Shown here: positions 1-5,861 of the stretch, piece after piece
Layout: every line of letters starts with the position of its first letter
How positions within the stretch are numbered: position 1 is the stretch's first letter
Source of the DNA: a virus
Taxonomy: Duplodnaviria > Heunggongvirae > Uroviricota > Caudoviricetes
Direction: 5' to 3' (one strand)
Virus record (IMG/VR): IMGVR_UViG_3300029711_000171
Coordinates: 1-5,861 of that record
Length of the DNA stretch: 5,861 nt
Translations under genes and position numbers: made by a program
The notes under the pieces: generated by a model
Database searches by the model: none
Told to the model about the DNA's origin: nothing
The model's input: the letters and a program-made list of their open reading frames with translations, nothing else

Positions 1-181
1 GTGGGTATCCACAGAAGGTCGACTGTCAGCCTCAACCTTAACCCGCGTGCGCTGAGCCGCATTCACCACAACGCTAAGGATTCTCTCAGGTTGAAAATAC
101 TTAGCTGTTATGTGCCTGTCTTTTCACCACTTCAGGCTCGGTGGTATCCTTTTAAGCCCGTATACATAAAAGGAAAATCAA

Positions 182-427
182 ATGACTTTTGATGAAAAAG
201 AACTTGATAATGCAATTAATAAAATCATCGTAACGTCGCTCTTTTCCTGTCTCAGCGACACTCAGCAAAAACAGTTCTACGAATCGGCTTTCAACATGAT
301 CGAGCGTTGTTGTTTCTGCGATGCCGACGAGTTACCTGAAAAAATCAGGAAACAGTTGGCTGATGCTCTTCGAGTGCGACTTTCTGACCAATTTTCTGAA
401 ATGTACTCTCCGAATTTGGACAAATAG
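182..427 (+). CDS. Hypothetical small protein (81 aa), no recognisable domain
   Basis: ORF with ATG at 182 preceded by AAGGA (170..174) at about 7 nt spacing; the translation looks protein-like. Its 3' end overlaps the convergent minus-strand ORF 345..620 by 83 bp, so one of the two may be spurious. Confidence 0.4.
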   Translation: MTFDEKELDNAINKIIVTSLFSCLSDTQQKQFYESAFNMIERCCFCDADELPEKIRKQLADALRVRLSDQFSEMYSPNLDK

Positions 428-620
428 AAAAAGGCCATTTCCATTCAGGGTCTGATGGAAAGACTTCAGCCTGTTCCAAAGCACGGCGTAAAGAGAATAC
501 AACTCCAGCCATAATCTGATGTTTCCCATTGGTCCAGCTATCGCCGCTCTGATCTACAGGAGCGGCTATGTCGCATGACCAAACGACTTCACCACTATTG
601 TTTAAAATCTGGACTTTCAT
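345..620 (-). CDS. Hypothetical protein (91 aa), second gene of the leftward operon
   Basis: Minus-strand ATG at 618..620 with a GGAGG Shine-Dalgarno (complement of 633..637) that lies inside the last codons of the upstream gene 629..850, a typical operon arrangement. No domain recognised. The C-terminal third overlaps plus-strand ORF 182..427. Confidence 0.45.
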   Translation of the reverse strand: MKVQILNNSGEVVWSCDIAAPVDQSGDSWTNGKHQIMAGVVFSLRRALEQAEVFPSDPEWKWPFSICPNSESTFQKIGQKVALEEHQPTVS

Positions 621-628
621 TTTGTTCT

Positions 629-850
629 TTAACCTCCAGATTTCCGCGCATCTAAAGGCGCATTCTCATTTGGTGTGAACCGAATAGTTGTGCTGCTATT
701 GATTAATGCCCCGACACACAAGACTACGCACTCAGAGCAGATAGCAACTTCATCTTTTCCGCCTTTGGCGATGATTTTTTTTGCCTGCAGCTCGTTTGCG
801 CCACAAAACGAGCATGTGAAATAACGGTTCATTTGCGCTCTCTTACACAT
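629..850 (-). CDS. Small ClpX-type C4 zinc-finger (ClpX zinc-binding-domain-like) protein; possible alternative start at the internal Met (ATG complement of 830..832)
   Basis: The translation contains CSFCG-x19-ICSECVVLC, which closely matches the N-terminal zinc-binding domain of ClpX as I recall it ([31 protein letters not shown]). The internal Met has an AGAGAG purine-rich stretch upstream; the first ATG has no clear SD. Confidence 0.65.
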   Translation of the reverse strand: MCKRAQMNRYFTCSFCGANELQAKKIIAKGGKDEVAICSECVVLCVGALINSSTTIRFTPNENAPLDARKSGG

Positions 851-930
851 AGTATTTAACGAATCATCCGGTCATTCATACGCCACCGGCGGCTACTTCG
901 TGGGCGTCCTGCCTGTTTGTTGTTTCTCTT

Positions 931-964
931 GGGTACATTATGTATCTCATAGGTACATTGTCAA
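931..964 (-). promoter_or_regulatory. PL-like sigma70 promoter candidate overlapped by two direct GGTACATT repeats (putative left operator)
   Basis: On the minus strand: -35 TTGACA (complement of 959..964), 16-bp spacer, -10 CATAAT (complement of 937..942). GGTACATT occurs at 932..939 and 952..959, 20 bp apart, overlapping the -10 and the -35/spacer. The GTACA core is shared with the palindromes between the repressor and cro. Confidence 0.45.
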
Positions 965-968
965 GTAT

Positions 969-990
969 AAAAAAACCTGCCGAAGCAGGT
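969..990 (-). terminator. Rho-independent terminator of the repressor transcript
   Basis: Minus strand reads ACCTGC-TTCG-GCAGGT followed by TTTTTT (stem 975..980 with 985..990, loop 981..984, T-run from the complement of 969..974), about 14 nt downstream of the repressor stop at 1004..1006. Confidence 0.6.
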
Positions 991-1003
991 TCATAAACAT
1001 TGA

Positions 1004-1678
1004 TTAGGCTTTGATTTTGTATCTTCTTGGTTTTCCTGAGAAAATCACAGTTCCAATTATAGAGCAATTACCGTTGATCTTAATGTAAGGCTCAGGCCAG
1101 TTTGGGTTTAACGCTTTGAGATAACGCTGTGTCCCATCTTCTATCAACCTTTTGAAGGTGGTTTCACCTGTATCGTGCATCAATGCAATAACGTCGTCAC
1201 CGTGGCAGGCAGGTACTTCAGGATCGACAAAAATCATGTCTCCCGGGCGGTACTCATCAATCATTGAATCACCTATCACCCGCAAGATATAAGTCATTTC
1301 CCCACAGGGTACAGGGCAGGGATACGTTTCTGCTGTGCTCAAATCAACCTCAGAATATCCAACTTCTTTCCATGCTCCGGCCTGTACCCATGATATGACA
1401 GGGACTAATGTGATTTGTTTATTAGTGATTGAAACATCAGGTTTTTTTGTGATGTTCGTTGTCTGGTGTTCTTGATCGAGCCATCCGACAGGCAGGTCGA
1501 AACATTTTTCGATGTGTCGTGCCATGCTGTCACCGATATTTTTAGTAGCACCATCTCCCATAAACCTGCTGGTCTGGGTTGGCTCGCGATCAATCATAGT
1601 GGCAAAGGAAGAATTCCCGCCAACACCATCTCTCAGTTTTCTGGCGTTAGACCGCCGGATGTCATGGATTGTTTTCAT
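1004..1678 (-). CDS. Phage CI/LexA-type repressor with N-terminal HTH and C-terminal S24 peptidase (autocleavage) domain
   Basis: 224-aa ORF. The C-terminal half has the S24 hallmarks: an Ala-Gly cleavage-site candidate (VQAGAW), a serine nucleophile in the GDSM motif and a lysine in TFKRL, at LexA/lambda CI-like spacing. The N-terminal 70 aa are basic with a helix-turn-helix character. Divergent from a Cro-like gene. Confidence 0.9.
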   Translation of the reverse strand: MKTIHDIRRSNARKLRDGVGGNSSFATMIDREPTQTSRFMGDGATKNIGDSMARHIEKCFDLPVGWLDQEHQTTNITKKPDVSITNKQITLVPVISWVQAGAWKEVGYSEVDLSTAETYPCPVPCGEMTYILRVIGDSMIDEYRPGDMIFVDPEVPACHGDDVIALMHDTGETTFKRLIEDGTQRYLKALNPNWPEPYIKINGNCSIIGTVIFSGKPRRYKIKA

Positions 1679-1694
1679 AACGAAATTAAAACCC

Positions 1695-1713
1695 TTGTAC
1701 CGTTAAGGTACAA
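1695..1713. promoter_or_regulatory. Operator-like perfect palindrome TTGTACC-GTTAA-GGTACAA
   Basis: Perfect 7-bp inverted repeat with a 5-bp spacer, 17 bp upstream of the repressor start codon, in the repressor/cro intergenic region. Confidence 0.5.
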
Positions 1714-1742
1714 GTATCTTGAAGGTTCATTTTAATCATGTA

Positions 1743-1765
1743 ATATGTACACTGGAGGTACATAT
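1743..1765. promoter_or_regulatory. Operator-like perfect palindrome ATATGTAC-ACTGGAG-GTACATAT overlapping the cro promoter and RBS
   Basis: Perfect 8-bp inverted repeat with a 7-bp spacer. It overlaps a candidate -10 (TAATAT, 1741..1746; candidate -35 TTGAAG, 1719..1724; 16-bp spacer) and the GGAGG SD of cro (1754..1758). The GTACA core is shared with 1695..1713 and with the repeats at 932..959. Confidence 0.5.
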
Positions 1766-1768
1766 TGT

Positions 1769-1978
1769 ATGAAAGCGTATTGGGACTCTTTAACCAAAGA
1801 ACAGCAGGGCGAGTTGGCCGGAAAAGTTGGCTCAACACCTGGCTACTTACGGCTGGTTTTCAATGGCTATAAAAAAGCCAGTTTTGTGCTGGCTAAAAAA
1901 CTTGAGCAATGCACGTCAGGTGCAATTACGAAATCTGACTTAAGACCGGATAAAGAAACCGATTATCGCTCATGGTGA
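1769..1978 (+). CDS. Cro/YdaS-like small HTH DNA-binding protein (lytic-side regulator)
   Basis: ATG at 1769 with GGAGG 10 nt upstream. The ORF track starts at 1745, but that upstream ATG lies inside the palindrome and has no SD. The translation has the small-HTH pattern and a GAITKSDLRPD motif like Cro/YdaS-family proteins. Divergent from the S24 repressor. Confidence 0.7.
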   Translation: MKAYWDSLTKEQQGELAGKVGSTPGYLRLVFNGYKKASFVLAKKLEQCTSGAITKSDLRPDKETDYRSW

Positions 1979-4269: not shown

Positions 4270-4800
4270 ATGAAAGGCTATATCACAGCAAGTGTAATTC
4301 TTGGAGCAGCGGCTATTTTTTCATCTCTCATAATCTCTGGCAACATCTCCTTTAAAGATGAACATATTATTCAGTTATCTGGAGGAGCCATAAAACTTGG
4401 TGATGTTTATAAAGAAAATAAATTGATAAGTGCAAAGATTATTTTTCCAGATAATCAGGGTGAACAGATTCTTGTTGTCGACGGCAATCCTGAAAACTTT
4501 AAGGAGGATTTTCAGGAGAAATTAAATAAAGTAATAAAAACTTTAAATGCGTCAAAGAAAAAAGATGAAGAGAAAGTTAGCCTGGATAATTTAAGTGTTA
4601 TTGAAGAGTCTAAACTAGAGCTCGTTTCTGCGGTGCGTTACTCTGCTCAGTATGTTCCTATGTTTACTCTGACGCTGGACAAAAAAGAAATTACCATGCC
4701 TAAAAATACGGTAATATTTCCATTTGCCAGCGATGAAACAGCTAAGTATTTAAATGAACAACAGCAAAAGTATAAAGATTCGTTGTTTCTGACTCGCTAA
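4270..4800 (+). CDS. Hypothetical membrane-anchored or secreted protein (176 aa), moron inserted in the tail operon
   Basis: Clean ORF, markedly more AT-rich than the flanking tail genes by eye. N-terminal hydrophobic segment (SVILGAAAIFSSLIISG) without a lipobox cysteine; the rest is Lys/Glu/Asp-rich. Flanked by its own promoter candidate and a strong intrinsic terminator. Confidence 0.7.
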   Translation: MKGYITASVILGAAAIFSSLIISGNISFKDEHIIQLSGGAIKLGDVYKENKLISAKIIFPDNQGEQILVVDGNPENFKEDFQEKLNKVIKTLNASKKKDEEKVSLDNLSVIEESKLELVSAVRYSAQYVPMFTLTLDKKEITMPKNTVIFPFASDETAKYLNEQQQKYKDSLFLTR

Positions 4801-4818
4801 TTAATAAAATTCATTACA

Positions 4819-4851
4819 AGGCCACCTTCTAATAGGTGGCTTTTTTATTTT
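4819..4851 (+). terminator. Rho-independent terminator after the moron gene
   Basis: GCCACC (4821..4826), 8-nt loop, GGTGGC (4835..4840), then TTTTTTATTTT (4841..4851), about 20 nt after the stop codon at 4798..4800. Confidence 0.75.
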
Positions 4852-4861
4852 CGGAGTGTAT

Positions 4862-5861
4862 ATGACGTGGAAAGACAGGCTTCAGGATGCGTCATTTCGA
4901 GGTGTGCCGTTTAAGGTTGAAGAAGAAAGTGCGGGAACCGGCCGTCGTGTGGAAACACACGAATATCCGAACCGCGACAAACCCTATACCGAAGATCTGG
5001 GAAAAGTCACTTTCCGCCCGTCCATCACGGCTTATGTGGTGGGAGATGACTGCTTTGACCAGCGCGATCGCCTGATTGACGCGCTGAATAAACCCGGTCC
5101 CGGCACGCTTGTCCACCCGACATACGGTGAGTTGAAAGTCTGTGTTGACGGGGAAGTTCGGGTCAGCACATCGAAGAGTGAAGGGCGTATTGTCCGCTTT
5201 GACCTGAAGTTTGTCGAAGCGGGAGATCTCTCTTACCCCACATCAGGCGTGGCGACGGCGCAGACGCTGATGTCATCCTGTTCTGCACTGGATGACTGCA
5301 TCAGTGACAGCTTCAGCGGTTTCAGTATCGATGGCGTGGCGGATTTTGTGCAGAACGACGTTATCGGTAATGCCAGCACAATGCTTGGGTATGTTTCTGA
5401 TGCGATGAAAGTGGTGGATTCTGCCGTATCGGATGCCGCCAGGCTGTTGCAGGGTGATATCTCGGTACTTCTGCCGCCGCCATCGTCAGGCAAAAATTTC
5501 GTTGAGCAGGTGCAGAAAATGTGGCGTACCGGNNNNNNNNNNNNNNNNNNNNNNNNNNNNNNNNNNNCTTTCCGGTGTCAGCCTCGGCAGCGATCTGCAA
5601 CCGCGCGGCGTCTGGAAAACGGACAGTAAAACCACCGCCACGGCGACGCAGCAGCGTAACGTGGTTGCCAGCACCCTTCGTACGACCGCAATCAGCGAAG
5701 CGGCGTATGCCGTCATCCGATTGCCTGCGCCAACAACTTCCGCGGTGATGCAGAATGCCACAGTGGGGCAGGCAACAACACCTGCGCAGAGCACCGGTTG
5801 GCCTTCCGTCACGCATCCGGCACTGAACAATGCACCGGCGGTGAAAAACACGGTTGACCTG
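4862..5861 (+). CDS. Mu gpN-like DNA circulation protein (tail/baseplate component); 3' end beyond the window; interrupted by the N-run
   Basis: ATG at 4862 with GGAG (4853..4856) upstream. N-terminus MTWKDRLQDASFRGVPFKVEEE matches, from memory, the conserved N-terminal motif of the Mu N / DNA circulation protein family. An open frame resumes after the N-run in a different frame and stays open to 5861. Follows the tape measure as in Mu-type tail operons. Confidence 0.75.
5533..5567. other. Run of 35 N (assembly or scaffold gap)
   Basis: Literal n characters in the sequence, inside the gpN-like gene. Confidence 0.99.

Follow-up and report, generated by a model that had tools for sequence, protein, structure and literature searches.

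Two palindromes between divergent repressor and cro-like genes are predicted operators of an e14/SfV-type lysis/lysogeny switch

A 90-bp spacer separates the start codon of a repressor gene (ATG at 1678, minus strand) from that of a divergent cro-like gene (ATG at 1769), and two perfect inverted repeats lie within it. What these repeats bind, and which promoters they control, is the question addressed here for the window, the whole stretch of 5,861 nucleotides that was analyzed. Palindrome a, TTGTACC-GTTAA-GGTACAA, occupies 1695–1713, and its perfect arms grow to 8 bp (CTTGTACC/GGTACAAG, 1694–1714). Palindrome b, ATATGTAC-ACTGGAG-GTACATAT, occupies 1743–1765; its perfect arms grow to 9 bp (1742–1766), and a repeat search revealed an imperfect extension with 15-nt arms of 87% complementarity (1736–1772). 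The sequence agrees with the initial annotation on the presence and place of both palindromes, and TGTAC-N(3–11)-GTACA was found twice in the window against 0.03 expected, a count reached in none of 200 shuffles. The different spacer lengths reported earlier (N5 and N7) do not hold, because the arms had been drawn to different depths: the shared 5-bp half-sites lie 7 bp apart in both sites, and 1696–1712 and 1746–1762 aligned as in-register 17-mers in the repeat search. The effective operator consensus is TGTAC(C)-N5-(G)GTACA, since conservation in site a extends to C at position 6 and G at position 12.

A search for further copies of the motif across the window revealed 921–937 and 941–957 at up to two mismatches. 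At this threshold, TGTAC-N7-GTACA gave five matches against 1.39 expected, four of which lie in two regulatory spacers, and no match was found in the 4,981 window bases outside 900–1800. A match at 1297–1313, with two mismatches and within the repressor gene, was taken as a chance match.

Window positions 1–1952 are 98–99.7% identical to the ymfK(cohE)–ymfT(croE) region of E. coli e14-type prophages and to the cI–cro region of Shigella phage SfV. Identity was 99.7% with E. coli STEC309 and 98.1% with SfV; at the protein level, SfIV encodes a 100% identical repressor. The region was matched in 2,315 of 5,426 complete E. coli genomes (about 40%), 101 of which cover at least 80% of the query. In the SfV record (GenBank U82619.2), the two genes are annotated as cI and cro, a 'putative operator region' feature maps onto window 1695–1763, and a 'putative rho-independent terminator' is placed at the position homologous to window 973–992. 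The spacer differs from that of e14, a cryptic prophage of E. coli K-12, by two bases, T1753 (C in K-12, within the spacer of the second site) and 1733. SfV and e14 share with the window both palindromes, a pair of leftward sites, the terminator, and both genes, whereas the 3' end of cro is replaced in the window by a junction to tail genes. These data indicate that the palindromes are almost certainly repressor-binding operators of an e14/SfV-type lysis/lysogeny switch. In the accessible literature, the SfV and e14 sites are annotated or assumed rather than experimentally mapped: footprinting, EMSA, ChIP, or reporter data for them were not found in the searchable literature, a full-text search with the operator sequences gave no match, and the accessible texts on ymfK, ymfT, cohE, and croE contain indirect statements only. 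The kind and location of the palindromes were already known, and the explicit five-site map and family-wide geometry given here are a modest refinement. The predicted features are as follows.

1004..1678, minus strand: repressor gene of the YmfK/CohE type (224 aa), N-terminal HTH domain plus LexA/lambda-CI-type S24 autocleavage domain
1769..1978, plus strand: Cro-like gene of the YmfT/CroE type, 69-aa ORF, YdaS-family HTH
1696..1712: operator ORa (OR3-like), TGTACCGTTAAGGTACA, perfect dyad; at -18 to -34 of PRM
1713..1729: probable, weak middle operator ORm (OR2-like), AGTATCTTGAAGGTTCA, three mismatches; abuts ORa
1746..1762: operator ORb (OR1-like), TGTACACTGGAGGTACA, perfect dyad; at about -7 to +10 of PR, contains the cro SD
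941..957: operator OL1, TGTATCTCATAGGTACA, one mismatch; between the -35 and -10 of PL (-27 to -11)
921..937: operator OL2, TGTTTCTCTTGGGTACA, two mismatches; at about -7 to +10 of PL
1685..1713, minus strand: PRM, -35 TTGTAC (1713–1708), 17-bp spacer, -10 TTTAAT (1690–1685)
A1678, minus strand: PRM transcription start, the A of the start codon (leader length 0 for K-12 ymfK, hence a leaderless mRNA)
1719..1746, plus strand: PR, -35 TTGAAG (1719–1724), 16-bp spacer, -10 TAATAT (1741–1746)
about 1753, plus strand: putative PR transcription start
937..964, minus strand: PL, TTGACA (964–959), 16-bp spacer, CATAAT (942–937), 11/12 consensus match
973..992, minus strand: intrinsic terminator from a terminator scan, 3' of the repressor gene; parts PRM transcription from PL

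The repressor has the domain composition of a self-cleaving regulator. Pfam recognized Peptidase_S24 (E = 1.5e-26), the autocleavage residues Ala100–Gly101, Ser138, and Lys176 were all found, and the C-terminal domain has its closest solved relative in the corresponding domain of lambda CI (E = 2e-9), so that the protein is predicted to be LexA-like and SOS-cleavable. The N-terminal 72 residues gave no Pfam match. A profile of the N-terminal domain matched PDB 5d50_A, 'Repressor', over residues 1–72 at full length (E = 1e-6), and a low-confidence model from a four-sequence alignment contained five predicted helices (pLDDT 58). The recognition helix is REPTQTSRF (residues 31–39). We take 5d50 to be the Rep–antirepressor complex of the Salmonella temperate phage SPC32H; Rep is the closest solved relative of the N-terminal domain, with the recognition helix RSQNLVNRW in place of REPTQTSRF; it also differs in its C-terminal part and is presumably inactivated by an antirepressor rather than by autocleavage. 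The Cro-like protein gave a weak YdaS-family/HTH_3 match in Pfam. Its gene is native through codon 61 of 66; owing to the junction at 1950–1952, the final 8 codons have a foreign origin. Among its relatives in all taxa, a GYLR(L/Q)V helix and the C-terminus LRPD(I/L/V)Y are conserved; the co-conservation of this helix with the operators across genera is consistent with, though not proof of, Cro reading the same sites.

The promoters were then placed relative to the sites. K-12 ymfK is one of five leaderless E. coli mRNAs listed by Romero et al. (2014; PMC4681348, Table S3), its transcription starting with the first base of the start codon, and the window is identical to K-12 over 1679–1732. 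Enteric relatives share a TNTAAT-like hexamer at a distance of 6 nt from the repressor ATG; the assignment of the PRM hexamers is putative, and the -10 (TTTAAT) is without the usual A at position 2. With a leaderless ymfK mRNA, site a falls within the repressor promoter, which suggests autorepression. Site b then covers both the cro ribosome-binding site and the -10/+1 of the cro promoter. As ORa spans -18 to -34 of PRM, a dimer bound there must occlude PRM, as at lambda OR3. PR scored under the threshold of a promoter consensus scan. However, the relatives carry -35 TTGACG and -10 TATAAT or CATAAT in the same columns, and we therefore read PR as TTGAAG-N16-TAATAT with a start near 1753. With this putative placement, ORb covers the cro -10 candidate, as the initial annotation had proposed; its further statements that the cro SD (GGAGG, 1754–1758) falls within the second palindrome and that the first lies just upstream of the repressor start (its 17-mer begins 17 nt from the ATG) were likewise confirmed.

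On the other side of the repressor gene, PL is the best promoter match of its region, lies just past the terminator of that gene, and has hexamers that are essentially invariant in 32 haplotypes. Because 921–937 and 941–957 lie 20 bp apart over this PL-like promoter, we read them as an OL/PL arrangement. As placed from the map, PL drives a ClpX-type zinc-finger ORF (850–629) and an ORF at 620–345; the start sites of PL, near 930, and of PR are predictions from consensus and alignment. The first gene after the PL-like promoter (629–850, minus strand) encodes a 73-aa protein whose C4 zinc finger is of the ClpX type (Pfam E = 1.4e-10). The proposal that the palindromes are operators of a divergent repressor/Cro switch was strongly supported by the homology to e14/SfV, the conservation across genera, and the tie between motif and repressor domain described below, whereas a switch of just two sites was not, as a degenerate middle site (1713–1729) and the pair at 921–957 are also present.

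The middle site was accepted on comparative grounds and is probable. At three mismatches, 17 matches were found in the window against 15.2 expected, and ORm alone is not significant. Its copies in relatives are better: a metagenomic relative, L086 (N-terminal domain 78% identical), has three sites, TGTACCAAACAGGTACA, AGTACCTTGTGGGTACA, and TGTACCCAGGAGGTACA, the second of them abutting the first at the place of ORm, and GGTACA right halves occur at the same place in Pseudomonas, Salinicola, Proteus, Morganella, and Amphritea loci. ORm contains the -35 hexamer of PR and has its centre at -43 of PRM. In an alignment of the relatives, the ORm half-sites had 1.18 bits against 0.75 in other columns, a conservation that is confounded by the overlap with the PR -35. 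The centres of ORa and ORm are 17 bp apart, so adjacent dimers would lie on different helical faces, which is a poor fit to lambda-style pairwise cooperativity.

To measure conservation, loci were collected in two ways. In a protein-first scan, an alignment of the N-terminal domain was searched against one genome per species, which yielded 29 loci in about 19 genera (Escherichia, Atlantibacter, Leclercia, Pantoea, Enterobacter, Pseudocitrobacter, Klebsiella, Trabulsiella, Phytobacter, Kluyvera, Entomohabitans, Limnobaculum, Rahnella, Serratia, Proteus, Symbiopectobacterium, Edwardsiella, Salinicola, Morganella, Pseudomonas, and Amphritea). All 29 loci contained two 17-mers (up to two mismatches) exactly 50 bp apart, the second of which always overlapped the GGAG of a cro-like gene, and ORa began 17–21 nt from the repressor start in 28 of them. 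In the 27 distinct spacers of this set, from which information content (including that of ORm) was calculated, the half-sites of a and b had a mean of 1.83 bits against 0.75 for other columns, and positions 7–11 of site a had the lowest values of the region (0.22–0.52 bits).

In a motif-first scan, viral contigs were searched for two perfect 17-mers 28–38 bp apart, and 119 loci were obtained. The DNA-binding domain of the repressor (55–100% identical, with an invariant I(D/E)REPTQ(T/V)SR segment) was encoded at 114 of these, and one more was cut by the contig end; the other five were unrelated repeat arrays with other spacings (match lengths 63, 66, 70, 70, and 71 bp). In each of the 52 distinct spacers, site a started 17 nt from the start codon of the repressor gene. 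The OL pair, for which the motif-first search had not selected, occurred in every enteric relative with a constant 20-bp spacing and fully diverged central bases, and OL1 is a perfect TGTACC-N5-GGTACA in most of the diverged ones. Among relatives found through the protein, Pseudomonas phage CF79a (59% identical, helix REPTQVSRL) shows this OR layout although its spacer is otherwise unrelated, and the motif was not found in Ralstonia phage Hennie, whose 41% identical homologue has a different recognition helix. A search with the 88-aa N-terminal domain returned mostly fragments, three of which were used for context. In one IMG/VR contig (L101), three rather than two OL 17-mers follow at 20-bp steps 3' of the repressor gene, an arrangement that looks like a local duplication of an operator unit.

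Variation among close relatives was examined in 80 viral-contig loci encoding a 100% identical repressor, a scan that was used for polymorphism only and that contained 25 OR and 32 OL haplotypes. Polymorphic positions numbered 5 of 40 in half-sites, 13 of 28 in the N7 spacers, and 22 of 135 in other non-coding DNA. Over all four sites, half-sites were less polymorphic than spacers (Fisher p = 0.004), more clearly so for non-singleton variants (1/40 vs 11/28, p = 1e-4), and at OL1 none of the 10 half-site positions but five of the seven spacer positions varied among the 32 haplotypes. For the OR spacer alone, the depletion in half-sites was not significant (2/20 vs 17/70). Moreover, the half-sites were no less variable than other non-coding positions (p = 0.8), because the latter are mostly promoter and terminator and are constrained too. 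The central spacers themselves (926–932, 946–952, 1701–1707, and 1751–1757) were more polymorphic than other non-coding DNA (p = 0.0016), and across genera their columns show the least conservation. This excess could reflect affinity tuning, hairpin-loop mutagenesis, or constraint on everything else.

Three other readings of the palindromes were weighed against repressor-bound operators. GTAC is itself a 4-bp palindrome around which short dyads arise easily, and GGTACA occurs three times in the tape-measure gene, so that clustered GTAC restriction or methylation sites, or another non-regulatory origin, might be considered. Nevertheless, an exact TGTAC-N7-GTACA has a probability of 1.0e-6 per position, two exact 17-mers inside 90 bp are expected only about 1e-8 to 1e-9 times, and their position and 50-bp spacing were kept in every protein-first locus across different hosts. 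The initial annotation had noted that a similar motif density elsewhere would speak against an operator function; 1.05 Mb of flanking phage DNA contained no exact copy, where about 1.07 were expected. Chance, to which we gave negligible weight, is excluded. The suggestion that each protein has a site of its own, the repressor beside its own gene and Cro beside cro, accounts for some differences between the sites: ORa always reads TGTACC...GGTACA (1.5 bits at position 6), whereas position 6 of ORb is variable (0.81 bits); the flanks differ as well, with extended outer arms at ORb in enteric relatives (AATATGTAC/GTACATATT); and the recognition helix of the repressor, REPTQTSRF, does not resemble that of Cro, TPGYLRLVF. 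However, the 5-bp half-sites and the N7 geometry are the same in ORa, ORb, and the OL pair, the 17-mer recurring at the leftward promoter, and the outer arms of ORb coincide with the PR -10 and are not conserved in distant relatives. A repressor unable to bind ORb could not repress PR. To our knowledge, both proteins share operators in every characterised lambdoid switch (lambda, 434, and P22), which also disfavours separate targets. We consider this division of sites unlikely.

The palindromes might instead act as RNA hairpins, one of them terminating or attenuating transcription upstream of the repressor gene and the other sequestering the cro SD and start codon. A terminator scan did flag 1714–1694 on the minus strand, hairpins of -11.4 to -13.4 kcal/mol (z-scores -3.2 to -5.7) were predicted, and a hairpin, too, would be expected to keep its stem and vary in its loop. 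In contrast, the ymfK transcript begins at the ATG, and ORa is therefore absent from that RNA; the predicted PR start lies inside ORb, so that only half of palindrome b would be transcribed. ORm and the OL copies, which are asymmetric, do not fold (-3.4 kcal/mol, z -1.0), yet they keep half-site and register. The arms are invariant over about 19 genera without compensatory changes, a pattern of a protein-binding site rather than of an RNA stem, and the tie of the motif to one DNA-binding domain also argues against hairpins. An RNA function is thus very improbable, even less likely than separate targets for the two proteins. The candidate intrinsic terminator at 1694–1714 was rejected, as its tail (GGUUUUAAUU) is a weak U-run and the hairpin lies upstream of the mapped ymfK start.

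The locus is very probably a lambdoid immunity region of the e14/SfV type with 17-bp operators bound by the repressor. As in lambdoid CI/Cro switches, divergent repressor and cro genes are separated by the 90-bp spacer, the repressor combines an HTH domain (N-terminal model of low confidence) with S24 autocleavage, several dyad operators of one family lie over divergent promoters whose positions are partly putative, and a second operator cluster lies at OL/PL. The near-identity of repressor, cro, and spacer places it in the e14/SfV type, of which the complete prophage early region (cro followed by ymfL-type, replication, and late genes) is not found in the window. In the mechanism that we propose, a dimer of the YmfK/CohE-type repressor would bind the 17-bp operators, with the two palindromes as the outer operators of a tripartite OR. 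Occupation of ORb would cover the PR -10/+1 and the cro ribosome-binding site and shut off lytic transcription. Occupation of ORa would block PRM between -10 and -35 and limit repressor synthesis at high concentration, ORm at -43 may provide a place for PRM activation, and binding of OL1 and OL2 would repress the leftward early promoter PL. Most likely, the YmfT/CroE-type Cro-like protein binds these operators too, in another order of preference, as in lambda. We infer actual binding, the order of occupancy, activation from ORm, cooperativity, and the Cro targets.

Lambda CI at OR2 activates PRM from -42, and the present switch resembles that of lambda in its middle site near -42/-43 of PRM, divergent cI/cro genes, 17-bp dyad operators, tripartite OR with outer sites over PR and PRM, leaderless cI mRNA from PRM, second operator cluster at PL, and an S24 autocleavage domain homologous to the CI C-terminal domain. 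It differs from lambda in that the operator sequence is unrelated, the centre-to-centre spacings in OR are 17 and 33 bp rather than 23 and 24, and OL has two sites rather than three. In addition, the N-terminal domain has no Pfam HTH match and is closest, among solved structures, to 5d50 rather than to lambda CI, and Cro belongs to the YdaS family, unlike that of lambda. The 933W Shiga-toxin phage switch reportedly has three OR and two OL operators; it is likewise a lambdoid switch with only two OL operators, and its repressor specificity and operator sequence differ from those described here. The ORa–ORb distance of 50 bp is invariant and ORa and ORm adjoin without a gap from E. coli to Pseudomonas and Amphritea, and variability is higher in the central spacers than in the non-coding DNA around them. 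On this basis, we put forward, tentatively and as a doubtful possibility, that the operator family works by a non-lambda geometry, in which repressor dimers would cooperate between ORm and ORb over 33 bp, or bridge OR and OL, instead of pairing with their nearest neighbours. Spacer variation may also tune the induction threshold between otherwise homo-immune prophages.

The main value of the analysis lies in the correct annotation of an intact, SOS-responsive e14/SfV-type switch on a truncated tail module. It adds an operator consensus, a map of five sites, and assigned promoters for a switch also found in E. coli K-12, where it controls the cell-division inhibitor YmfM/SfiC. The consensus could serve to predict immunity groups and to design reporter and derepression experiments; no new kind of system was revealed.

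At the junction (1950–1952), cro breaks off after codon 61 of 66, and codon 6 of a tail-assembly-chaperone gene follows, with TA as a 2-bp microhomology; from 1951 onward, the window continues from a point 16 nt inside that gene, which comes from the same prophage type. In intact SfV-like prophages, the tail-assembly-chaperone gene lies about 20 kb away, and about 20 kb are missing at the junction by comparison. The junction was absent from the 5,426 complete E. coli genomes, the viral contigs, and the metagenome contigs searched. It stems either from a deletion private to the source strain or from chimeric assembly. The intact switch now stands beside a partial tail module. A locus of E. coli SCPM-O-B-8794 (L208) leaves the e14 cro at exactly the same base as the window, after ...GACCGGATA, and continues with other downstream sequence; the shared point of divergence at the cro 3' end (1945–1952) may be a recombination hot spot or the boundary of a mosaic module.

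Four further features were observed in the window. A 35-N run, masked or unresolved, lies at 5533–5567 within the DNA-circularization gene. At 4270–4800, an AT-rich ORF (GC 0.33 vs 0.51–0.54 in the flanks) between the tape-measure and DNA-circularization genes looks like a moron; it encodes 176 aa with a hydrophobic N-terminus and without a Pfam match, and is hypothetical in E. coli genomes. A terminator-like hairpin lies beside it, near 4822–4850. Finally, a slippery heptamer, T TTT TTC (2186–2192), occurs at the end of the tail-assembly-chaperone ORF (1980–2204), with a -1 frame ORF extending to 2353, which by its sequence is the programmed frameshift usual in tail chaperone genes.
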